Assembly (NCBI GenBank): GCA_030646255.1
Contig: JAUSNF010000021.1
Location: 9,340 to 73,339, forward strand
Reading direction: 5' to 3'
DNA length: 64,000 nucleotides
Source of the DNA: Candidatus Burarchaeum sp.
Lineage (GTDB): Archaea; Micrarchaeota; Micrarchaeia; Burarchaeales; Burarchaeaceae
The position numbers were made by a program, and so were the translations under genes. Under the pieces are notes generated by a model. The model saw nothing but the letters and a program-made list of their open reading frames with translations, was not told where the DNA came from and did not search any database. Of this stretch, positions 2,841 to 62,997 are shown piece by piece (position 1 is the first letter of the stretch; the number at the start of each line of letters is the position of its first letter).

Positions 2841-2879
2841 AGAGTGGGGAGCGGGTGACTTGCCCTACCTTTTCTTTCC
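2841..2879. repeat. Direct repeat copy B (core GGGGAGCGGGTGACTTGCC), overlaps the Fic stop codon
   Basis: Matches 1364-1401. Confidence 0.5.
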
Positions 2880-3809
2880 AAGCATCCTCTTCAGTGCCTT
2901 ATACTCCTTCAGCAGCAGATTCAGCGTGGGCCTGAGGTCGTGCCCGTGCTCGTACTTCTGCAACGCCGCATAATACTCGCTCCTGTGCTTCATCTCAATG
3001 TTCACCGGCGGCAGGCCGTTCTTCAGCAGCATGTTGTTCAGCAAAAGCCTACCTACCCGGCCGTTACCGTCCTGGAACGGGTGAATGTTCTCGAACTGAT
3101 TGTGAATGACTGCAGCCAGCACGAGCGGAGGGTACCTGCGCCTGTTCTTGGAATACCAGCGCACCAGCTCGAACAGCAGGCTCCTGACCTGCGAGGAAGG
3201 CGCTCCCTGATGCACAATCCTGCGCGCGCCGTCCACCACCGCCACTTCAACGCCCGGCGGCCTGAGCTTGCCTGCAAAGGGCTTCGAGTTTCCGAAAACA
3301 AGCCTATGAAGCTCGAGGATGAGCGGCAGGGAGATATGCTCCTTGGTCTTCCTGATGAACGCAATCGCATTGGCGACCCCATAGGTTTCCGATATCTCCT
3401 CCTTCGGCTTGTCCGGCCAGTTGTCTTTTTCCAATATTTCTTCAACTTCCTTGTAGCTGACAGTGGAACCTTCGATGGCGTTGGTGTCATAGGCGAAGGA
3501 TTCGACGAATTTCTGCCAGTCTTCTTCTGACAGGTGCGCTATTCTGATTTCCCCCATCGCCTCGAGCGTGCGAAGCTCCTTCAGCTCTTGCGGTGAGAGA
3601 GCGGCTTCAAGCGGGTCCCGCATGCCTGCCTGCGCGCTGATTTTGGCCGTTAGCTTTGCTTCGGCCATGCGCTTAGCTTCCGCAAGCTCGTCGGGGCTGA
3701 GGTTCTCGCCGAGATAGATGCGGAGCTTCCTCACCTTGCCGCCCTTCCGGTACGAGTGTGCGAGATAGTATTTTTTCCCTCCCCTCAGTTTCCTAATTTC
3801 GACGTGCAT
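2865..3809 (-). CDS. fic: Fic/Doc-family protein (AMPylase-type)
   Basis: HPFQDGNGRVGR Fic motif, 314 aa. Confidence 0.85.
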   Translation of the reverse strand: MHVEIRKLRGGKKYYLAHSYRKGGKVRKLRIYLGENLSPDELAEAKRMAEAKLTAKISAQAGMRDPLEAALSPQELKELRTLEAMGEIRIAHLSEEDWQKFVESFAYDTNAIEGSTVSYKEVEEILEKDNWPDKPKEEISETYGVANAIAFIRKTKEHISLPLILELHRLVFGNSKPFAGKLRPPGVEVAVVDGARRIVHQGAPSSQVRSLLFELVRWYSKNRRRYPPLVLAAVIHNQFENIHPFQDGNGRVGRLLLNNMLLKNGLPPVNIEMKHRSEYYAALQKYEHGHDLRPTLNLLLKEYKALKRMLGKKR

Positions 3810-7327: not shown

Positions 7328-8044
7328 CTATGCGCGCATTTCCCTGTGGCGCACAAACGCCGCACCGGCAATGAAAAGCAGCCCGAATGCCGGCAGGCAG
7401 CATACCGAGCCCCCGCCCTGGTCCTGCTCAATCTTCTGGAAAGCCTGCTTTAGCTCGTCCTTATTCTCCGCAGTATAATACTTGCCTCCGCCCGCAGCTG
7501 CAATCTGCTGGTGCTGCGCCTTGGCAGCCGGGTCATCGGCGAGCGAGTAGCTGATGACGTTTATCACTGCTATTCCCTCATCCGTAGTCTTCTGGGCCTC
7601 GAGCACCGGGTCCCCGCCGCAGTTCTCCTCGCCGTCAGTAAGCAGTATTATGGTACCCTTCCCGCCCATCTCGCTCTTCACGTACTCCCTTCCCTCTGCA
7701 ATCGCCTCTGCTATGGGCGTCCAGTCTCCGGTGCCTATGCCGTTTATAGAGCTTCTCAGCTCCTGCTTGTTCGAAGTGAGCTCCCTTATCACGCGTATGT
7801 CGCCTGTCTGCGGGTTCCCTCCGTCATCGCACGTGTGGAATTTCATGACGGCGAACTGGTCTCCCTGCGATGCATCTATGAAATCTATGGCCGCGGCCTT
7901 GGCCGCCTCCAGCTTCGTCTCCCCGCTGTCCAGGTAGTCGTCCATGCTGGTGCTGGCATCCATTATGACAAGGAAGGAGCCTGCCGATACTGTGGCTGCG
8001 AGAAGCAGCAAGAATAGTCCTGTTTTTGCAATATATCTTTTCAT
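7328..8044 (-). CDS. Secreted von Willebrand factor A domain protein with a C-terminal membrane anchor
   Basis: Signal peptide, MIDAS DASTSMDD, C-terminal LPAFGLLFIAGAAFVRHR PGF-CTERM-like tail. Confidence 0.7.
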   Translation of the reverse strand: MKRYIAKTGLFLLLLAATVSAGSFLVIMDASTSMDDYLDSGETKLEAAKAAAIDFIDASQGDQFAVMKFHTCDDGGNPQTGDIRVIRELTSNKQELRSSINGIGTGDWTPIAEAIAEGREYVKSEMGGKGTIILLTDGEENCGGDPVLEAQKTTDEGIAVINVISYSLADDPAAKAQHQQIAAAGGGKYYTAENKDELKQAFQKIEQDQGGGSVCCLPAFGLLFIAGAAFVRHREMRA

Positions 8045-44925: not shown

Positions 44926-45474
44926 ATGGCCTATTACGACATGCACGTGAGGTTCAAGCCTTCTGCGTCAGACCTGCGCGAGCTGGGCTTTGCCTCTGCA
45001 TGCACCGGAGGCGAGCAGGTTCAGGAATGCGTAATACACAATGAAAACGAGCTTTCGCAGGCTCCTGCGAAGGGCAAGATATCAATTCTCGCATGCGAGA
45101 ATCCCGAGCTCCTGCGCAAGGGCGTGAAGCGCTTCGACCTTTTCTTCGTATCGTCATTCTACCCGGACACAGCGCTCATGCGCGAGGTTGCGCGCGAGGA
45201 GAAGGCTTTCGAAATACCGGTTAACGGGCTGCTGCGCTCAGGAGGCTACGCAAGGGCCAACCTGCTTGCAAGGATGCGCTTCTTCGTGCGGCTGTGCATA
45301 AAGTACAAGGCGGATTTTGTGCTGACCAGCAGGGCGAGCGACAGGCTTGAAATGAAGAGTGTGGATGAGCTGATTGCGATTGCAGGCATGCTCGGGCTTG
45401 AGCCACAGCAAGCAAAGCATTCTCTTTCAGATGTGGCTGGGCGCATAATCAGCGAAGCAGCCTCACGCCACTAA
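44926..45474 (+). CDS. rnp3: RNase P protein component Rpp30-like
   Basis: N-terminal YDMHV; size and position next to pop5/psmA. Confidence 0.5.
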   Translation: MAYYDMHVRFKPSASDLRELGFASACTGGEQVQECVIHNENELSQAPAKGKISILACENPELLRKGVKRFDLFFVSSFYPDTALMREVAREEKAFEIPVNGLLRSGGYARANLLARMRFFVRLCIKYKADFVLTSRASDRLEMKSVDELIAIAGMLGLEPQQAKHSLSDVAGRIISEAASRH

Positions 45475-45832
45475 TGCCATGGAAATGGGAATCGTAAGTA
45501 ACAAGCAAAGCCGATTTCTGCTGGGCAGCGGTAAGTATTATTGCGTCTGCAAGGGACAATCTATGCTTTATCGCATTATTTGCTGCCTCCTCACACAAGA
45601 AAGAATCAACATCAACAATCTCGCTATTGCTCTTGACAAACCAAAGCTTGGACTCTCTTTCTGAACGCGGTATTCCGACGCCCAGCATCTTTTTCTTGAT
45701 TTCGAAAAGGGACAAAGCGCATGTGAATTTGCGCATCTCGTCATTTTCCGCATAACCTGCCGCTTGTTCTTCTCCACTAACAAGATATGTAATCCAAACC
45801 GAAGAGTCAAGTAAAACCCTAGTATCTGTCAT
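45449..45832 (-). CDS. vapC: PIN-domain VapC toxin
   Basis: N-terminal LLDSSVW with conserved acidic residues; 14-nt overlap with the upstream small gene. Confidence 0.7.
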   Translation of the reverse strand: MTDTRVLLDSSVWITYLVSGEEQAAGYAENDEMRKFTCALSLFEIKKKMLGVGIPRSERESKLWFVKSNSEIVDVDSFLCEEAANNAIKHRLSLADAIILTAAQQKSALLVTYDSHFHGISGVRLLR

Positions 45833-48632: not shown

Positions 48633-49400
48633 ATGGTTGGTGGAGCTACCACAAAGGAGCTCATTGTGAATGGAAAACGGCTGGACGGCCGCGCGCTGGA
48701 CGAGCTGAGGCCCATAAAGATAGAGGCCTCGGTGCTCAACAAGGCGGACGGTTCAGCCTACGTAGAGTGGGGAAAGAACAAGGTGATTGCAGGCGTATTC
48801 GGGCCGCGCGAGTGCTTCCCGAGGCGGGATGTCAATCCATACCGCGCAACGCTCAGGTGCAGGTACCGCATGTCGCCCTTTGCGACAAGCGACCATGGCA
48901 GGAGCGGGCCGAACAGGCGCTCGACCGAACTTTCCAAGGTGATAAGGGAAGCCTTCGAGGGCGTTGTTCTGCGCGAGCAGTTCCCGAAGACTGCCATAGA
49001 CGTCACGGTCGAAGTTCTGCAGGCTGACGGCGGCACAAGGTGCGCCTCGCTGGTTGCAGTCTCAACCGCGCTCGCTGATGCGGGCATACCTATGAAGGAT
49101 TTGGTGAGTGCAGTCGCAGTGGGCAAGATAAATGGCAAGCTCGCACTCGACCTCACGGGCGTTGAGGACAACTTCGGAGACAGTGATATACCCGTGGCAA
49201 TAACAGGCCGCAACAAGGAAATAGTGCTGTTCCAGATGGACGGCGTGCTCCTGCCCGAGCAGATTTCGCAGGCGCTTAAGATGGCGTCTGCGGCAAACGA
49301 GCACATACACGCACTGCAGGTGGACGCGCTCAAGCTCGTCTACGAATCTAAGCAGGCGCAGGGCGGTGCCCGCACGGGCGCAGCTTCGGAGGAGGACTGA
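48633..49400 (+). CDS. rrp41: Exosome subunit Rrp41 (RNase PH)
   Basis: RNase PH fold motifs. Confidence 0.9.
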   Translation: MVGGATTKELIVNGKRLDGRALDELRPIKIEASVLNKADGSAYVEWGKNKVIAGVFGPRECFPRRDVNPYRATLRCRYRMSPFATSDHGRSGPNRRSTELSKVIREAFEGVVLREQFPKTAIDVTVEVLQADGGTRCASLVAVSTALADAGIPMKDLVSAVAVGKINGKLALDLTGVEDNFGDSDIPVAITGRNKEIVLFQMDGVLLPEQISQALKMASAANEHIHALQVDALKLVYESKQAQGGARTGAASEED

Positions 49401-52393: not shown

Positions 52394-52780
52394 ATGGCCA
52401 GCGAGTGGTTTTACGGTTTGCTTGTCTTGCTATTGGGTGTTGGACTCATGTACGGCGTCTACCATGCGCTCACCTCTGCTGACACAATACGGCAGGCTTC
52501 CAACTCGCTTCCCTCTTCGCAGTACTCTTCTTCCCCTTCACAAACAGCATCTTCCCAGCCCGTGTGCACCGAAGGCTCCAAAGAATCTTGCATTTTAGCC
52601 AACGGCTGCGATGGCAAGAAAGTCTGTTTCCAGGGCGAATGGACCAGCTGCATTGCGCCCAGGCAGGCCTGCACACCAGGCTCAAAACTAGGGTGCGCAT
52701 TTACAGATGAAAACGGCTGCGGCGTGGGTGAAAAAACCTGCAACGAATGCGGCACAGGCTGGAGTGGCTGTTCTCCATGA
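52394..52780 (+). CDS. Small N-terminally anchored Cys-rich protein, first gene of the pilin-like operon
   Basis: One TM helix, Ser-rich linker, 12 Cys in ~65 aa; stop overlaps the next start (ATGA). Confidence 0.5.
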   Translation: MASEWFYGLLVLLLGVGLMYGVYHALTSADTIRQASNSLPSSQYSSSPSQTASSQPVCTEGSKESCILANGCDGKKVCFQGEWTSCIAPRQACTPGSKLGCAFTDENGCGVGEKTCNECGTGWSGCSP

Positions 52781-53556
52781 GCTCGAAAAAAGGTTTCGTA
52801 TTCACCGTAGATGCCTTCGTAGCCCTCACGCTAGTCGTGCTCGTAATCTTCGTAATAGTCTACCAGCTCAACATACCATCAGCCTTCTTCCCTCAGCAGT
52901 CCCAGACCTACAACTACGCGCGCGACGTCGTGAGCACGCTGAGCACGCTGACAATAAAGAACCTTAAAGATAATAACGATAAGCTCGGCGATCCTCTATA
53001 TGATATGCTGTTGGATTCGGGCTATGCATACGTTCTCGACATCAATGGCGATCCAATACCCTACCTTCCAATCACAACTGAAGACGATCACACCGTTCTT
53101 GAACAGATAGCAAAGGAAGCCCGAATTACTGACAGGAAAGAGGTAGCTAGGCTTATTGCAGTGAATCTCCTTGCTTCCGATGCTGACAACGATTCGACGA
53201 CCTCTGGCAAGCCGATGATTCCTGAGCAGTTCGGAGTTAAGATTAGCATCGAAGGTTATCCGGACGCGGACGTGATAGTACGCGACAAGCCGTTCACAAA
53301 AATCCAGTCTTCCGCTAGCTATGTGTTGATGGGCTACACTGCAAGCCGAGACCCCCGCGTCCCGCGCTATGATTATCCTTCCTATGTTCCGGAAAACAGA
53401 AAATACTGCTCAGACGGAACTTCAGACGGCGCACCTGGAGATATTGACAGCAACCAACCTGCGCTTCCCTGTGCTGTCTTTTTCCAAGACACCAATTATG
53501 AACCAGGGGCAATAACCGAGACGCCACTCATTGTGCGCGTCAGCGTATGGACGTGA
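52777..53556 (+). CDS. Class III signal peptide (type IV pilin-like) protein
   Basis: MSSKKG|FVFTVDAFVALTLVVLVIFVIV: KG cleavage motif plus long hydrophobic helix. Confidence 0.6.
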   Translation: MSSKKGFVFTVDAFVALTLVVLVIFVIVYQLNIPSAFFPQQSQTYNYARDVVSTLSTLTIKNLKDNNDKLGDPLYDMLLDSGYAYVLDINGDPIPYLPITTEDDHTVLEQIAKEARITDRKEVARLIAVNLLASDADNDSTTSGKPMIPEQFGVKISIEGYPDADVIVRDKPFTKIQSSASYVLMGYTASRDPRVPRYDYPSYVPENRKYCSDGTSDGAPGDIDSNQPALPCAVFFQDTNYEPGAITETPLIVRVSVWT

Positions 53557-55430
53557 ACTTCATGATTTTCCACAAATCCCACAAAGCATTCTTCTTCACA
53601 GGCGCAGTGGCCATTCTGCTCGTGCTGCTCATAGCCTCAACCATGACCTGGGTCGCAGTCTCGAACGCGCGCTCCGAGCGCGCGCCGCTCATTACGCAGG
53701 GCCAGCAGGTTCAGAACATGGTGCAGAGCGTCATGGGCTACCAGCGCGCGCTGCAGGTTTCATCGGAAACGGCGTTTTATCAGACCAACCTGCACATGCG
53801 CGCGCAAATTACAGTTCCGAATCCATCAGGCGGCATGACTGCATTAGATGCAAAAAACGAAAGGTATACGTGCATCTATCCTGACATTAGCCCTACTCCT
53901 GATCCGCTATGCGACATAGCCCATTCCAATGATCCGATTTACACGGGAGTAAGAAATAATGTAATCAAGTACTTCTTCTGCGACACATTGGCAACCTATG
54001 CGCAGGGCTGGAGATCCGGGATAAGGAAGCTCGGCAATGAGATGGGGCTTGACGTGTTTATCACTGAAGACCCGGATGCGGAAGAGGTCTGCAAGCTCTC
54101 AATGTCTAATTACAGGACTGTGAAAGTGGAATACAAAGGAACCTACGAAATAAGAGACAAGGCAACCGGCCAGCTGCTTGCCAGCGGCAAGCTGCCCGGC
54201 GAGGCCTACGTGGACATAAACGGCTACGAGGACCCTGCCATATGGGACCGGGCCCGCAAGGATCCGGCTGCGTTCACCGGCGGTCCTATAAGGAACATAT
54301 ACTTCAGCGGCGAGGTCGGGACCAAGCCTACTGTCGGGACCTCGCCTGACGTCCTCAAGCCCGATCCAAAGGTGATTGGCATGCGCGGCAAGGGCTGGTT
54401 CTACGGCAAGACCATCTCTGATACGTTCGACTCAGTCTCCAATCCCGAATGCGTGGACGCTTCAGATCCCAACCCGACGAACCTCAAGAAATGCATAGTC
54501 GTCATATTTGCAGTTTCCTTCTCGGATCCCAATGTCGTCTCGGACCTTAATGCAAACTACGGCGGTGTAATCCTGCTGAACGTGCCGGAGGAAGTTGTAA
54601 GCGACGTTGACTGCGACGGCAACTTAATACCTGATTACGAACTTCATGAGGAAACGGAATACTGCCTTGACTGCCTAACGTACTTGAAGAAGATTGGTAC
54701 TGACGAAATTACAACAAACCCTCTGGACTGCCCCTTCGGGGTGCCCCAACCTCCGCTACCAAACATCCTGGGCCCGAACGGCCTTAACCAGGTTTCGATC
54801 CCGTTCATAGCAGCAGATTACACAGATCCATCCATCAAGGCTTTCGTGGACGATCCAGCAAACCGTTGGAAGCACTACTTCATAGGTTCTAAGAACTGGA
54901 GCAACACAATAGGCATCTCTGAAGTTCACAATATTTGGGACATCGAGAAGCTCAGGGCAACTGCGGTGTGCGGATTCTATATGAATATGAGCGGCTATGT
55001 GGACGTGAACAACCAGCCCATCCCAGATGCGCCGGACTTCCTACAGCGCATGACCATAAGCGGCGACAGCCAGACTTCGCCCAACGGAATCGAAAGCTTC
55101 CTGGTTGGCGTGGGCGTGAATGACATATGGAATGAGGGCGTTCTAATAACCGGCGTCTCGGGAATCTATTCCAACGCGGACCACGCATATCTAGAGCAAC
55201 TCGGTCCTCCGAAAGCCTCACCCGATACCTTCAGGATGAAGGGCATGCCCGGATGCCGCGAGCTGGATCAGTGCTCTTACCTTACGCCAGCGGGCCAGAG
55301 CTCGCCCGTAGGCCACTTTGCAATTGATTACACAGACCACTTGCTCTATGATCCTTTCAACATCTTGCAATGCAATCCCGATTCTGCGACTTCAGGCTAT
55401 CATGCCTCCTGCGACGACACTGCAAACTAG
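53547..55430 (+). CDS. Large (627 aa) pilin-like protein, candidate adhesin/tip subunit
   Basis: N-terminal ...HKSHKA|FFFTGAVAILLVLLIAS; 10-nt overlap with the upstream gene; many Cys and Asn. Confidence 0.5.
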   Translation: MDVNFMIFHKSHKAFFFTGAVAILLVLLIASTMTWVAVSNARSERAPLITQGQQVQNMVQSVMGYQRALQVSSETAFYQTNLHMRAQITVPNPSGGMTALDAKNERYTCIYPDISPTPDPLCDIAHSNDPIYTGVRNNVIKYFFCDTLATYAQGWRSGIRKLGNEMGLDVFITEDPDAEEVCKLSMSNYRTVKVEYKGTYEIRDKATGQLLASGKLPGEAYVDINGYEDPAIWDRARKDPAAFTGGPIRNIYFSGEVGTKPTVGTSPDVLKPDPKVIGMRGKGWFYGKTISDTFDSVSNPECVDASDPNPTNLKKCIVVIFAVSFSDPNVVSDLNANYGGVILLNVPEEVVSDVDCDGNLIPDYELHEETEYCLDCLTYLKKIGTDEITTNPLDCPFGVPQPPLPNILGPNGLNQVSIPFIAADYTDPSIKAFVDDPANRWKHYFIGSKNWSNTIGISEVHNIWDIEKLRATAVCGFYMNMSGYVDVNNQPIPDAPDFLQRMTISGDSQTSPNGIESFLVGVGVNDIWNEGVLITGVSGIYSNADHAYLEQLGPPKASPDTFRMKGMPGCRELDQCSYLTPAGQSSPVGHFAIDYTDHLLYDPFNILQCNPDSATSGYHASCDDTAN

Positions 55431-55438
55431 CTGATATT

Positions 55439-55900
55439 ATGGACTCCCACCGCGCCCAGGCAAGCACCGAGCTCTTCGTGCTCGTAGCCTTCTTCCTAGT
55501 CTTTCTCATACCCATAGTCTTCCTGATGATGAACCTGTCGGGCGAGAAGGCGAACGAGGCGTCGCTGGCGCAGGCGCAGCAGCTGGGCAGGAGAATGACG
55601 GACCTTGCAGACCAGGTTTACATACAGGGCGGCGCGGCGCAAAAGGTGGAAGCGCTCTTCTTCCCGGCAAACATCATCAACCTGAATGTGGGCGGGGACG
55701 CGCCCGATAAGCACGAAATCGTGATAACGGTTTCAACCTACAACGGGGAGACTGACTTGGTGTTCATGACTACTGCACCGCTTTCAACGACTACGGACTG
55801 GACCGGCCAGCCCGACCTTTACCTGGGCGCCGGCATGAAAAAAGTAAGGGTTTACAATGAACCTGCCGATAATTCGGTGGCGATTGACTATGAGCCCTAG
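55439..55900 (+). CDS. Pilin-like protein
   Basis: MDSHRA|QASTELFVLVAFFLVFLIPIVFLMM with Q+1/E+5; the ATG at 55439 is preferred over the track start. Confidence 0.65.
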   Translation: MDSHRAQASTELFVLVAFFLVFLIPIVFLMMNLSGEKANEASLAQAQQLGRRMTDLADQVYIQGGAAQKVEALFFPANIINLNVGGDAPDKHEIVITVSTYNGETDLVFMTTAPLSTTTDWTGQPDLYLGAGMKKVRVYNEPADNSVAIDYEP

Positions 55901-56375
55901 GCTGAAGGCGCAGATGGCGCTTGAATTCCTTTTGCTAGTGTCCTTCTTCCTCCTAGTGCTCGTGATAGCCATGGGCTATTTCGCGAGCCTGCAGCAGACC
56001 GAGATGACTAACCGCGAGTATCTGCTCGGCAGGGAAGTTGCAGCCCGCATTGCGGACGAGGTTCACCTGGCGCTGGTGAGCGGGCCGGGCTATGAAAAGA
56101 CCATTAACCTGCCTCCGACAGTGGCAGGCTCGCCCTACGAGCTGCGCATAACGAACTCCGACCAGTTCGCAACAGCCTACGTGGAAATCAGCTGGACGCG
56201 GGGCGGCACAGACCTGGAATACGCCTTCCCGCTTGCGAGCAGGAGCGTTTACGGCGAGCTGAACGGACTGGGGGTATTTCCACCATTTGCTTTAGATGTT
56301 ACAATACCTTTAACTATAAAGAATGCTGATCTTACAGACAACCGAGTTGGTATAATTGTTTTCCACCAAGACTAA
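55890..56375 (+). CDS. Pilin-like protein
   Basis: MSPRLKA|QMALEFLLLVSFFLLVLVIAM with Q+1/E+5; start at the internal ATG 55890, overlapping the upstream gene by 11 nt. Confidence 0.65.
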   Translation: MSPRLKAQMALEFLLLVSFFLLVLVIAMGYFASLQQTEMTNREYLLGREVAARIADEVHLALVSGPGYEKTINLPPTVAGSPYELRITNSDQFATAYVEISWTRGGTDLEYAFPLASRSVYGELNGLGVFPPFALDVTIPLTIKNADLTDNRVGIIVFHQD

Positions 56376-57087
56376 AACCTCCAAAGGCCAGTTCTTCTCG
56401 CTAGACGTGATAGCGGGCTCGCTGATCTTCATGGTGGCCTTCTTCATCCTTGCCTTCTACTGGCTCAATGCGCAGGCAGGCATGGGCGATAAGACGGATG
56501 ATCTGCAAAGGGAATCCGAGCGCATTGCGGACCAGCTCATGGTGCCCAGCCAGTTTGAAAACATTGAATTTACCGATATGCAAACCGCACTCGGTCCCAT
56601 GTGCCCTAACTATCCCGATATAACGGATACATCGATAAAGCAGCCAGACGACCTCCTCCCTGTCAATTATGTCAGCATAATCAATTCCAAGTCAAGGGTA
56701 CTGCTCACGGCAATGGCATATCTCAACTACACGAGTGCCCTAACTGCGGGAGCAGGAAGCATCAGATTCTACGACTCAATAAAAGAAAAGCTGGGAATTC
56801 CCCGGTATGAGTATTATATTACGCTTGAAGATAGCAATGGGGACGTGCGTACGGATTGCGCAGATTTTGGATTCACGACTACGACCTGTTCTCCTAGCGG
56901 TCCGCCGCCAATGTTGAACTGCGTGGGAGGCGCGCCTCCGCCACCAAATGCCCGCGAAATTGCAAATGCAGAGCGCATAGCGCTGTTTAACCGATACCGG
57001 GGCGAATTTGATCCTGATGTTGCTGGCCAGCTGTACTTTGGAGCACCAGAACTGGTCAAGGTACGCGTTCAGGTGTGGCGTCCATAG
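56356..57087 (+). CDS. Pilin-like protein (TTG start)
   Basis: ...TSKG|QFFSLDVIAGSLIFMVAFFILAFYW; overlaps the upstream gene. Confidence 0.5.
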   Translation: MFSTKTKTSKGQFFSLDVIAGSLIFMVAFFILAFYWLNAQAGMGDKTDDLQRESERIADQLMVPSQFENIEFTDMQTALGPMCPNYPDITDTSIKQPDDLLPVNYVSIINSKSRVLLTAMAYLNYTSALTAGAGSIRFYDSIKEKLGIPRYEYYITLEDSNGDVRTDCADFGFTTTTCSPSGPPPMLNCVGGAPPPPNAREIANAERIALFNRYRGEFDPDVAGQLYFGAPELVKVRVQVWRP

Positions 57088-58888: not shown

Positions 58889-60106
58889 CTATTCCCCTAG
58901 CACTTCCTTTCTTTCCTCATAATAACTCTTCGACTTGCCGGGCCTGAACGCGCTCATCTTGCGCAGCTCCTCAACTTCCTTTCTGACCGCGGCCACCACA
59001 TACCTTGCCTCTTTCTCATTGTTGAACTTTGACAGCGAGAACCTGATGGAGCCATGCGCCTGCTCATGCTCCAGCCCGATTGCCTTGAGCACATGGCTCG
59101 GCTGCAGGGATTTGGAAGAACAGGCCGAGCCTGTTGATACGCAGATGCCCTTCACGCTCAGCCGCATCAGCAGCGCCTCGCCCTCTATGAAGTCGAATGT
59201 AATGTTCGCATTGTTGCACAGCCTCCTGCCCAAATTCTTCCCTACAGGCCCGTTCATTCTTGTGTTCGGTATTTTCAAGAGCTCCGCAACCAACGCATCC
59301 CGCAGGCGCGCCATGCGCGGCACTTCCTTCTTCATATCCCGCACTCCAATTTCAGCCGCCTTTGCAAAGCCCACAATGCCTGGCACATTCTCAGTGCCCG
59401 CCCTCAAATTCCCCTCCTGCGGCCCACCGTAAATCTGCTTGCCCAGCCGGATGCCCCGCCTTACGAAGAGCGCGCCAACGCCCTTGGGGCCATGAATCTT
59501 GTGCGCATTCAGCGTGAGCAGGTCAACATTCTGCCGCTTAACGTCAATCGGCACTTTCGTAAAGCTCTGGCATGCATCTGTGTGGAAGAGCACTCCCTTA
59601 GCCCTGCAAACCTTGCCAATTGCCCCAATATCCTGAATAGTGCCAATCTCGTGATTGGCATGAATCACGCTCACGAGCACAGTCTTGTCATCAATTGCCC
59701 TTGCCACCTGCTCAGCACTTACAAAGCCTTCCGAATCAACATCTAGGAATACAACTTCAAAGCCCTTCTCAGCCATGCGCTTGAACACATTGCCCACAGA
59801 CGCGTGCTCAATCTTCGTCGTAATTATTCTCTTGCCCTTCGCGCCCTCGCCAAGCGCCTCGCATGCACCCACAATCGCAAGATTATTGGCTTCAGTAGCG
59901 CATCCAGTGAAAATAATCTCCTCAGGCTCGGCATTAATGCACTTCGCAACCGTGCGCCTGCTGGCATCCAGAATCTCCTCTGCCTCAAGGCCCATATAGT
60001 GCAGGCTCGACGCATTGCCATACTTTTCAGTCATGTAGGGCAGCATAGCCTTGGCTACCTCTGGCAGAACCCTTGTCGTGGCCCCGTTGTCCATGTAAAC
60101 TTTCAT
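58889..60106 (-). CDS. iscS: Cysteine desulfurase IscS/NifS
   Basis: SVIHANHEIGT, PLP Lys in TLNAHKIHGPKGVG, SGSACSS active site. Confidence 0.9.
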   Translation of the reverse strand: MKVYMDNGATTRVLPEVAKAMLPYMTEKYGNASSLHYMGLEAEEILDASRRTVAKCINAEPEEIIFTGCATEANNLAIVGACEALGEGAKGKRIITTKIEHASVGNVFKRMAEKGFEVVFLDVDSEGFVSAEQVARAIDDKTVLVSVIHANHEIGTIQDIGAIGKVCRAKGVLFHTDACQSFTKVPIDVKRQNVDLLTLNAHKIHGPKGVGALFVRRGIRLGKQIYGGPQEGNLRAGTENVPGIVGFAKAAEIGVRDMKKEVPRMARLRDALVAELLKIPNTRMNGPVGKNLGRRLCNNANITFDFIEGEALLMRLSVKGICVSTGSACSSKSLQPSHVLKAIGLEHEQAHGSIRFSLSKFNNEKEARYVVAAVRKEVEELRKMSAFRPGKSKSYYEERKEVLGE

Positions 60107-60130
60107 TCCATCGCCCTCTGCATCAGCAGT

Positions 60131-60379
60131 TCAGCAAACCTCGACCAGGAACCCTTTCCTGCCTACGGGCATTAGCTTGGTCTTGTCCCCTTTCTTTATG
60201 CCCATGTGCCGCGCCAAATCCTCGGGTATGGTTATGATGAGCGACCTGCCCGCATAGCTGACCTTCCTCTCGAAAATCAGGTTCTTCTTCCGTATGTTCT
60301 CGAGCGAGAGGTTGCAATAGCCGCACATGCCCGCCTTTCCCGGTTCGTCATTCTTCGCTTTAGCACCCATATCAATCAC
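60131..60379 (-). CDS. AbrB/SpoVT (MazE-like) swapped-hairpin domain protein
   Basis: ...LIITIPEDLARHMGIKKGDKTKLMPVGRKGFLVEV. Confidence 0.4.
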   Translation of the reverse strand: MIDMGAKAKNDEPGKAGMCGYCNLSLENIRKKNLIFERKVSYAGRSLIITIPEDLARHMGIKKGDKTKLMPVGRKGFLVEVC

Positions 60380-60612
60380 TAATCTAATTAGTGAAAGATA
60401 AGAATTAAAAAGCTTTCTGCGTCCTGCCAGACAGATGCTAGAACGCCCTAGGCCTGTATCCGGATTTGGTCTAGCTACCGCATCAGAAACTAATTAAAAG
60501 ACATACTTCGTAGGATATTGGTTCTGCAAGACAATCAATTTGACTGGGTGAACATATCAAAGCACAATCGGCAATCGAGTACCTGACAATTTATGGCTGG
60601 GCATTCTTATTA

Positions 60613-62997
60613 TTGGTCGTTATGCTCGCAGTATTGTTACAGTTGGGCGTTTTCAAAACAGCAAACTATGTCCAAACTGGAAACGAAGTCGTGGGGTTCA
60701 ACAGCTTCAACATCAACCGAGTTCTTGTGCGCTCATCAGGCGAATTCGAGGTCAGCCTCTCCAACCTGCTCGATGACAAGGTTACTATAACGGAAATCAC
60801 CGTGGACGGCTTGCCCCTAACAAACGTTTTGCCAGCGCTGCCCTTCAACCTTTCAGCGGGCTCGAACGTTACGATAACAGCAGACTCGCCAGTCACAGGC
60901 ACCGCAGGCGCGATTTACAATTCCAAGATAAGCATAAAATTCGACGTTGAGCGCGGCACCTCAGACCACTATGACGCGGGCTTCCTCAAGGGCGAGTTCC
61001 AGCCCGGCGGAATGGGAAAAAAGCAGTGTTCGAACGGGCTCGATGACGACAGCGATACGCTCACCGACTTCCCCGCAGACCCAGGCTGCTCCAATGGGAA
61101 TGATGGAAACGAGCGCAACCCGCTAATAGCGTGCGATGATGAGAAGGACAACGACAATGACGGGCTCAAGGACTATCCTGCAGACCCCGGCTGCTCGAGC
61201 CCCATAGACGGTGATGAGACTGATTCAGTGCTGGAAACAGCGTGCGAGGACGGCGTCAACAACGACAATGACGGCCTCATCGATTATCCTGCAGACCCCG
61301 GCTGCACGGGCGCCTCTGACACGAGCGAGCTCGGCATGGTGGAGTGCGACAATAATGTTGACGATGACACTGACGGCTACACCGACTATCCTGCAGACAC
61401 CGGATGCTCAAGCGCCTCTGACACAAGCGAGCTTGGCACGGTGGAGTGCAACGACGGCAACGACAATGATGCGGACGGCCTCATTGATTATCCTGCGGAC
61501 AGCGACTGCTCGAGCCCCGCCGATGACAGCGAAGCCTCGTCAGCATCCTGCGCTGACACCGACGGCGGCATCAACTACACTACGCTGGGCTCGGTGAGCG
61601 GCTACTACAACGGCATGCCTTACAGCTACACTGACTACTGTGCCGGCTCATACATTGCTGAACACTACTGCGACGGCACGGTGAACAAGACCTCGTGGTA
61701 TACTTGCAATAGCATGGGCACCGGCTACACATGTTCAAACGGCGTCTGCGTGCCTCCTGCGCCTCCGGCGAACTGCACGGACAGCGACGGTGCACTGCCC
61801 ATGGAGCCGTTTTACCCGATAGCATCACAAATAGGCACCGCGGGAACGTGCACTGATGCGAACGGAATTTTCACTGACATCAGCGTCAACTCAACAATCC
61901 TGAACGAGTTCTACTGCGGCCCGACGCAGAACCCGATTTCGTGCCTGAATACCACATGGTACAACTGCCTCTCGCACAACTACACCGGCTCTTCGGGCGG
62001 CAAGTGCATCTGGGAGAACGTGTCAAACAACAACAGCTGCAGTGATTCGGATGGCGGCTTGATATACAATGTCACCGGTGCAACTAGCGGCTACTACAAC
62101 AACACAGCTTACAATTACACCGACAGCTGTTACAATGCGACATGGGTGAATGAGCAGTTCTGCTCTGGGAGCCCATGGCAAGCTATCTGGTCGAACTCGA
62201 CTGTTTACGCATGCAGTAACATGGGCGCGAACTACACATGCTCTGCTGGGAAGTGCGTGTACAGCGCACCTCCGCCGCCCAACATGACAAACTGTACGGA
62301 TACAGACGCTTATCTGCAAGAGGCGCTGAAGTACCCGCTCCAGTCGCAGATAGGCGTGCAGGCGCAGTGCACTGACTACCGTGGCATATATTACGACACG
62401 AGCCAGGATTCCAATTGGACGAGCGAATACCATTGCTACCAATACAACAGCAGCGAAAACAGGTGCGGCTTGACCGTATACAACTGCCTGTCATGGAACT
62501 ACACTGGCTCATCGGGCGGCAAGTGCGTCTCGTCAAACAACAGCTGCAGCGACACTGATGGAGGGCAGATATACAATGTGACTGGAACTGTTAATGGAAC
62601 TTACAATGGCGCAAATTACAGCTACACCGATACCTGTTCATCCGGCACACTCCTGCAGGAAAATTACTGCTCGGGTACCACGAACCACTCGGAGATGTTC
62701 ACCTGCACCAATATGGGCGCGGGCTACACATGCTCGGGCGGCAAGTGCATTCCGCCCGCAGCAAACTGCACTGACACGGACAGCTACCTCCAAGTTGCCA
62801 GGAATTATCCGCTTTCCTCGCAGATAGGCGTGTATGCCAACTGCACGGACAGCGGCGGCGGAACCTATGATGACGCGACTATAAATGCGACAGCGTCTAG
62901 GGAGTTCTACTGCGTTTCCTTGACTTGTTACTACGCGGAATACAACTGCCTGTCATGGAACTACACCGGCTCATCGGGCGGCAAGTGCTACAAGTAG
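60613..62997 (+). CDS. Large secreted Cys-rich modular repeat glycoprotein; real start is probably near 60556
   Basis: 5x C-x-DNDxDGLxDYPADPGC Ca-binding-like repeats, then alternating ~95-aa modules A/B x3; more than 40 N-x-S/T sequons; an in-frame upstream KAQSAIEYL class III signal motif. Confidence 0.6.
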   Translation: MVVMLAVLLQLGVFKTANYVQTGNEVVGFNSFNINRVLVRSSGEFEVSLSNLLDDKVTITEITVDGLPLTNVLPALPFNLSAGSNVTITADSPVTGTAGAIYNSKISIKFDVERGTSDHYDAGFLKGEFQPGGMGKKQCSNGLDDDSDTLTDFPADPGCSNGNDGNERNPLIACDDEKDNDNDGLKDYPADPGCSSPIDGDETDSVLETACEDGVNNDNDGLIDYPADPGCTGASDTSELGMVECDNNVDDDTDGYTDYPADTGCSSASDTSELGTVECNDGNDNDADGLIDYPADSDCSSPADDSEASSASCADTDGGINYTTLGSVSGYYNGMPYSYTDYCAGSYIAEHYCDGTVNKTSWYTCNSMGTGYTCSNGVCVPPAPPANCTDSDGALPMEPFYPIASQIGTAGTCTDANGIFTDISVNSTILNEFYCGPTQNPISCLNTTWYNCLSHNYTGSSGGKCIWENVSNNNSCSDSDGGLIYNVTGATSGYYNNTAYNYTDSCYNATWVNEQFCSGSPWQAIWSNSTVYACSNMGANYTCSAGKCVYSAPPPPNMTNCTDTDAYLQEALKYPLQSQIGVQAQCTDYRGIYYDTSQDSNWTSEYHCYQYNSSENRCGLTVYNCLSWNYTGSSGGKCVSSNNSCSDTDGGQIYNVTGTVNGTYNGANYSYTDTCSSGTLLQENYCSGTTNHSEMFTCTNMGAGYTCSGGKCIPPAANCTDTDSYLQVARNYPLSSQIGVYANCTDSGGGTYDDATINATASREFYCVSLTCYYAEYNCLSWNYTGSSGGKCYK

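Follow-up and report, generated by a model that had tools for sequence, protein, structure and literature searches.

Where does translation begin in an archaeal gene whose reading frame offers canonical start codons only within or beyond its hydrophobic helix? The question is raised by a cysteine-rich open reading frame (ORF) near the end of a 64,000-nucleotide window (the whole stretch of DNA analysed here), which is chromosomal DNA of the DPANN archaeon Candidatus Burarchaeum, a Micrarchaeota-related genus placed in the order Burarchaeales (PMC8561730). The original prediction described a 794-aa ORF beginning at TTG (60613..62997, reproduced in our ORF listing) and noted that the frame remains open for 69 nt upstream. 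The open frame does extend back to 60544, immediately after TGA at 60541-60543. The added stretch contains no in-frame ATG, GTG or TTG and encodes LGEHIKAQSAIEYLTIYGWAFLLL; from 60544 it reads L-G-E-H-I-K-A-Q-S-A-I-E-Y-L-T-I-Y-G-W-A-F-L-L-L. Two explanations had been offered, a pilin-type adhesin with an unconventional start (ATC among the options) and a wrongly annotated N-terminus, and the results below favor both. We propose a modular type IV pilin adhesin of 813 residues, encoded by 60556-62997 with a near-cognate ATC start positioned by GGTGA; this reading is built on sequence comparison, and we assign it a probability of roughly 0.7.

The upstream codons have clear counterparts in complete pilins. 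A search with only the N-terminal domain recovered small pilins of 142-164 aa from Burarchaeum and its relatives (P0121-P0126). Small pilins P0121-P0127 are 49-67% identical across the whole pilin module, and the leader, helix and beta-sandwich are shared. The complete 151-aa Burarchaeum pilin P0122 aligns from its first residue, with Met-1 placed on ATC 60556 and the match continuing through 61008 (tblastn, 65% identity, E = 9e-60), and the prepilin-like character reported for the upstream stretch is thus far beyond chance. Small pilins terminate at ...GEYQPG, precisely where the extension of the adhesin starts.

Read from 60556, the frame gives M-K-A/Q-S-A-I-E, which has the basic leader ([KR]-[AG]), the Gln and the acidic +5 residue of type IV pilins. 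The predicted class III (prepilin) leader M-K-A occupies 60556..60564 (+); cleavage is predicted to separate A (60562-60564) from Q (60565-60567), and the +5 residue of the predicted mature N-terminus is a Glu encoded by 60577-60579. The motif [KR]-[AG]/Q-x-x-x-E-[YF] is common to the adhesin and the pilin family. A leader this short is not out of place: 15 of the 150 best family representatives have three-residue leaders (M-[KR]-[AG]/Q), and most leaders in the family are 3-8 residues long. Similar N-termini were reported from ORFs further upstream, and KAQMALEF and RAQASTEL are present there (55857..56375 and 55370..55900, respectively).

The sequence preceding the proposed start also matches that of the small pilins. 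A Shine-Dalgarno-like GGTGA is located at 60547..60551 (+), 4 nt before the proposed near-cognate initiation codon ATC (60556..60558, +). Three small-pilin genes begin with GGTGA-TAGC-ATG AAA GCG CAA (L111), cGTGA-TGAC-ATG AAG GCG CAA (L112) and GTGA-TTCC-ATG AAA GCG CAA (L110). All six genes compared, three adhesins and three small pilins, align without gaps as an invariant GTGA, 4 nt, AT[G/A/C] and AAR GCN CAA. The start position is occupied by ATG in the paralogues (MKAQ...), by ATC in the window and by ATA in the two adhesin orthologues (L001 and L002). The arrangement GGTGA-N4-ATC/ATA of the adhesins therefore matches GTGA-N4-ATG of the paralogues, which supports the ATC option among the unconventional starts considered originally. 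(G)GTGA followed after 4-6 nt by ATG also precedes other genes of the window, e.g., at 48633, 46496, 50983 and 47988.

Two orthologues that include the N-terminal domain were identified, P0002 (853 aa; L001, JGI sample 3300032069) and P0003 (746 aa; L002, JGI sample 3300036766). Their identity to the window protein is 45-51% as a whole and 56% within the N-domain. In each, the gene call begins at an internal Met ('MEF', 'MEY'), which aligns with I-E-Y in the window. Their DNA encodes a hidden extension, ...G-E-K-I-K-A-Q-A-A-M-E, and the start region reads GGTGA-GAAG-ATA-AAR-GCA-CAA. Comparison of start codons among orthologues had been suggested as a check, and it shows that the upstream K-A-Q...E is conserved and that there is no canonical start between GGTGA and K-A-Q. 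Neither orthologues that begin at the TTG and lack K-A-Q...E nor an ATG restored by a corrected base were found.

L001 has no canonical in-frame start after the upstream stop, and L002 has only a GTG 26 codons upstream. Upstream of GGTGA the two loci differ by indels totalling 23 nt, and we conclude from this that the region is non-coding. From the ATH codon on, in contrast, changes are synonymous (AAA/AAG, GCA/GCG, GAG/GAA) or permitted by the motif (S/A, I/M). The L002 GTG was considered as a start and rejected, as it lies before the TATA-like box and the indel-broken non-coding sequence. Inspection of the window shows a TATA-like, AT-rich box, TAATTAAAAG (60491..60500, +), which precedes the proposed start by 56-65 nt and may be an archaeal promoter element; in an alignment it is matched by ATATAAA(C/T) elements ahead of the orthologues.

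The orthologues bear directly on the possibility, raised with the original prediction, that a substitution or indel introduced by sequencing or assembly masks a normal ATG or GTG. The window derives from a metagenome-assembled genome, and an out-of-frame GTG does lie within GGTGA. However, three independent assemblies, two of them the metagenome orthologues, lack a canonical start at this place and show identical spacing, and the small pilins, which share this out-of-frame GTG, start at the ATG that follows GTGA after 4 nt. Because the arrangement is shared by the three assemblies, we regard an error as very unlikely.

Recoding would be another route to the same protein, either from GTG 60548 with a -1 frameshift, from the in-frame, near-cognate CTG 60544, or by reinitiation after a mini-ORF. 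In L001 and L002 the GTG does open a three-codon mini-ORF (GTG AGA AGA TAA) with a stop that overlaps the ATA; in the window, however, it opens a 12-codon ORF that ends elsewhere. Frameshifting and mini-ORF reinitiation are rejected because this arrangement is not conserved. There is no conserved slippery site and no Shine-Dalgarno sequence upstream of the GTG, and CTG 60544 overlaps the Shine-Dalgarno-like sequence of the adhesin and is absent from the orthologues. We consider recoding of any of these kinds highly improbable.

The gene could also be a decaying pseudogene that has lost its start codon, as the missing canonical start and the lack of Pfam domains might suggest. This is hard to reconcile with the persistence of intact 2.2-2.6 kb ORFs in three lineages whose proteins are 45-57% identical, with invariant Cys positions, or with the conservation of sequons, of the C-terminus and of synteny beside IscS/NifU, and we give it very little credence.

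Public gene calls place the start further downstream. The NCBI protein P0001 begins at TTG 60643, which removes the whole hydrophobic segment, and the JGI proteins P0002 and P0003 begin at the conserved internal Met. If translation did begin at a downstream canonical codon (TTG 60613 or 60643 in the window, the internal ATG in the orthologues), K-A-Q...E would be an untranslated relic and the peptide stretch QSAIEYLTIYGW... would be absent from the product. These codons are the only canonical ones on offer and are the choice of the gene callers. Yet the orthologue ATG is the conserved +4 Met of the family, which is Ile (ATC) in the window, and the window TTGs fall within the hydrophobic helix or beyond it and lack a Shine-Dalgarno sequence. 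The upstream codons evolve as coding sequence and align with residues 1-19 of complete pilins, and a downstream start would leave a protein rich in disulfides and sequons without any targeting signal. We judge a downstream start to be quite unlikely. From the comparisons of orthologues, paralogues, spacing and leader length, we infer that initiation takes place at ATC 60556 (at ATA in the orthologues), which would give a product beginning with M-K-A/Q-S-A-I-E-Y. If so, the suspicion that the annotated N-terminus is wrong holds for all three public gene calls examined (NCBI and JGI), which appear to be N-terminally truncated, with the secretion signal cut off.

An Ile codon at this position is by itself no sign of an unusual start. 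About 115 related 'IKAQSAMEY' (IKAQSAMEYLMTYGWA) pilin N-termini were found at 107 Micrarchaeota loci, and nearly all have an ATG 1-30 codons upstream of the Ile; for this reason the Ile at -3 is usually a mere residue of the motif. When the window was compared with L001 and L002 from stop to stop, the adhesin was the sole real gene conserved far (21 codons) before its first canonical start; other flagged pairs were either shadow frames (those of IscS, NifU and similar genes) or, at prefoldin, an overhang of three residues. These controls indicate that the anomaly is specific to the adhesin orthologue group.

We also considered whether a hidden N-terminus is a habit of the family, and rejected this. 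Three pilins were called at an internal Met yet have an ordinary ATG upstream (P0124 in L110, P0125 in L111 and P0191 in L113). The calls are at the conserved Met (+4) or later, and the normal ATG lies 6-9 codons upstream (L110 2920-2947, L111 598-616 and L113 247-274). The class III signal peptide is missing from these public records because of the internal-Met calls, which are gene-caller errors, not non-canonical starts.

Other leaders in the group differ in form. Dozens of metagenome pilins that are closely related to one another (L005-L082, e.g., L025 at ~2920-3000) have unusually long (~22-32 aa), repetitive, Lys-rich leaders ahead of the conserved cleavage motif (...KKKLLGKASAKETFRESF/IKAQSAMEY). 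An unrelated 302-aa Micrarchaeota pilin (IKAQSAMEYLMTYGWS...; L012 2990-3030) has no canonical in-frame start after the stop that precedes it. Its Ile position is occupied by ATA, with GGAG directly before, and this may represent a second, independent non-canonical start.

The pilin module (residues 1-151, 60556..61008, +) consists of an N-terminal hydrophobic helix and a beta-sandwich and equals a complete small pilin. An AlphaFold2 model of these residues shows a helix at 2-30 and strands within 44-147 (predicted local distance difference test score, pLDDT, 79), i.e., a helix with a beta-rich domain as expected of a pilin. In a Foldseek search of the PDB, ranks 1, 3 and 4 were Sulfolobus acidocaldarius Aap (8q30), Pyrobaculum calidifontis (8fk7) and the Methanospirillum hungatei archaellin (5tfy); these archaeal pilin and archaellin matches have E = 1.8e-4 to 8e-4, and rank 2 was a bacterial chaperone-usher chaperone. 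After the module ends at residue 151, 660 further residues follow, and the protein thus has the composition of a modular pilin, i.e., a complete pilin module with unrelated C-terminal modules. Together with 8q30 and 8fk7, the small Burarchaeum and Micrarchaeota pilins are among the closest known systems; the small pilins end at ...GEYQPG and start with ATG, whereas the adhesin continues for another 660 residues and has ATC.

Beyond the pilin module are five acidic repeats bracketed by cysteines, C-x3-D-x-D-x-D-G-x2-D-[YF]-P-x-D-x2-C (61027..61509, +). All five of the repeats described originally are present, with Cys pairs 158/178, 193/213, 230/250, 264/284 and 298/318 (numbered from ATC 60556). 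The repeats are members of NCBIfam NF033662 ('acidic double-disulfide repeat'), whose model gives 71.8 bits in five stretches and has a cut-off of 41. The proposed likeness to thrombospondin type 3 or dockerin loops found no Pfam match at E <= 10. Its thrombospondin part finds some echo in a PDB sequence search, where the sole match was the C-rich calcium-binding domain of teneurin-4 (7plp), a weak thrombospondin-3-like resemblance (E = 0.23). Of the three calcium ions that the teneurin-4 domain binds, two are bound in thrombospondin-3-like fashion (PMC9058538). The motif C-x-D-x2-D-N-D-x-D-G-L-x-D-x3-D-P-x-C is common to the teneurin C-rich domain, thrombospondin type 3, NF033662 and the adhesin, but the teneurin domain has six Cys and each adhesin repeat has two. 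The acidic repeats are probably calcium-binding spacers.

The remainder of the protein is an alternation of two kinds of cysteine-rich module. The order A-B-A-B-A-B stands as first described, with six Cys in each of A1 (61549..61773), B1 (61774..62037), A2 (62038..62292), B2 (62293..62544), A3 (62545..62766) and B3 (62767..62997), all on the forward (+) strand. Module lengths were overestimated at ~95 aa and measure 74-88 aa. B3 includes the conserved C-terminus NYTGSSGGKCYK, in which all orthologues end, and the stop codon. Of the 46 Cys in the protein, the acidic repeats contribute 10 and the six modules 36; the first 157 residues are free of Cys. An AlphaFold2 model of A2+B2 is all-beta (pLDDT 71.5). 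The A/B modules are disulfide-rich and without a known fold, and Pfam gave no meaningful match for the full-length adhesin or its segments. Exact look-up of the window protein and of pilin P0122 returned no record.

The DNA-level recurrence of the modules is borne out by a 36-nt repeat with copies in B2 (62491-62526) and B3 (62953-62988). Both match the degenerate pattern with no mismatches and differ at the Y position, and none of 100 shuffles gave two matches. The architecture varies among orthologues, with two or three acidic repeats and the orders AAB-AAAA-B or AAB-AAB. When P0002, P0003 and P0004 are compared with window positions 61027-62997, the acidic repeats number 2, 3 or 5, and the A and B modules differ in number as well as in order. 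Such shuffling of modules among orthologues fits with the 36-nt DNA repeat that B2 and B3 share.

The protein was said to have more than 40 glycosylation sequons; we counted 30 (N-x-S/T, where x is not P). This is about twice the expectation from 1000 composition shuffles (14.2, standard deviation 3.3, maximum 27). All four orthologues show a 2.1-2.9 fold enrichment of sequons, and the module copies have five conserved sequon positions in common, two of them invariant. Because of this enrichment and positional conservation, heavy N-glycosylation of the adhesin is plausible.

How might such a protein be made and used? In the proposed reading, the ribosome would initiate at ATC (ATA in the orthologues) 4 nt past GGTGA, and the initiator Met-tRNAi would read ATC as Met if near-cognate initiation operates as in Escherichia coli. 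In that bacterium, AUA, AUC and AUU initiate at 1-2% of AUG, and an N-terminal Met has been confirmed for AUC (10.1101/063800). Prepilin peptidase would then remove M-K-A, and the shared helix would permit co-assembly into the same pilus as the small pilin. There the C-terminal modules would serve as an adhesin, exposed most likely at the tip of the filament or at scattered points along it. The acidic repeats would probably bind calcium and form a stiff stalk, and the A/B modules, probably N-glycosylated, would be the probable ligand- or host-binding part.

This design has a bacterial precedent. The PilB and PilC modular pilins of Streptococcus sanguinis have a bulky module grafted on a pilin and are probably located at the tip (PMC8179133). 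Like the adhesin, they combine a small class III pilin module, a short linker and bulky C-terminal modules. They are known as adhesive, minor, low-abundance subunits that are probably exposed at the tip. The adhesin differs in having an archaeal pilin module (helix plus immunoglobulin-like beta-sandwich, with leader M-K-A/Q), in the nature of its grafts (five acidic repeats and six disulfide-rich modules rather than vWA or lectin domains) and in its non-canonical start codon. Modular pilins are therefore an already known design, and what appears to be new is the archaeal version, the uncharacterised adhesin modules and the positionally conserved AUC/AUA start.

A weak start would, we speculate, limit the bulky subunit to low numbers compared with the major pilin. 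Among bacterial genes with weak starts, infC is subject to IF3-dependent autoregulation. In E. coli infC and pcnB (AUU), as proposed for the adhesin, the conserved and authentic start is a near-cognate AUH codon that follows a normal Shine-Dalgarno sequence; a weak start limits output (10.1101/063800). The two bacterial genes encode cytoplasmic proteins and use AUU, whereas the adhesin is archaeal and would use AUC or AUA. We offer tentatively, with the odds somewhat against it, the further idea that the AUC/AUA start is under selection as an intrinsic attenuator, setting how much adhesin-pilin is made per major pilin, the adhesin having been derived from the major pilin.

Several observations weigh against the proposed adhesin and its ATC start. 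The Pfam model PF04021 (Class_IIIsignal) did not match the N-terminal 39 or 157 residues at E <= 10; the model has 27 positions, and a neighbouring pilin-like ORF matched it only weakly. TM-scores to solved pilins are low (~0.35), because the orientation of the helix differs. The window ORFs that were scanned include no recognisable pilus assembly ATPase, platform protein or prepilin peptidase (peptidase A24). In the databases searched, only three orthologues carry the N-terminus, and as L001 and L002 are close they amount to effectively two lineages. We know of no DPANN archaeon in which AUH initiation has been established by experiment, and a literature search on archaeal non-AUG initiation returned nothing direct.

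DPANN archaea rely on physical attachment to host cells, and to our knowledge the proteins responsible are largely unknown. The adhesin is a concrete candidate for such attachment, a pilin of the archaeon's own with grafted adhesin modules. The loss of the signal from every copy examined means that localisation predictions and surface-proteome inventories miss it. If AUC or AUA does initiate here, archaeal annotation pipelines limited to ATG, GTG and TTG are incomplete, and functional AUH initiation in Archaea would, as far as we know, gain its first case supported by comparison. Were the attenuator idea also true, the gene would provide a simple natural example of stoichiometry controlled through start-codon strength, and would point to a host-attachment organelle of a DPANN symbiont.

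The gene resides in a conserved setting. Housekeeping genes nearby include those for SMC, EF-2, RNA polymerase subunits, topoisomerase VI, TFB and the exosome/proteasome superoperon. Upstream, the order is a pilin-like operon (52394-57087), alanine dehydrogenase, then on the opposite strand NifU, IscS and a small AbrB/MazE-like gene, and then the adhesin. The orthologue locus L001, on an 84-kb JGI contig, has the same gene neighbourhood. Rfam gave no match in 60100-60800.

The pilin-like operon comprises six genes with class III-type N-termini (KAQMALEF, RAQASTEL and KGQFFSLD) and almost no Pfam matches; one member is 627 aa in length. The operon is kept in L001 (2476-6639) and lies ~3.4 kb upstream of the adhesin in both genomes. 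The 82-aa AbrB/MazE-like gene (60131-60379, -; SpoVT-AbrB fold) is divergent from the adhesin, with 176 nt between the two, and has a counterpart in L001 that is 78% identical and in the equal position. It may encode a regulator of the adhesin.

At another small-pilin locus, P0124 (L110) is 54% identical to the window pilin module and its gene is directly after two T2SSF platform genes. Following the small-pilin gene, L110 3408-6305 encodes a 965-aa protein with SLT (a weak match) and Peptidase_M23 domains, i.e., a peptidoglycan hydrolase, which suggests a pilus locus equipped against the bacterial cell wall. Also present in the window, amid the housekeeping genes, are accessory genes for vWA-domain (7328-8044, -), Fic/DOC (2865-3809, -) and PIN-domain (45449-45832, -) proteins.

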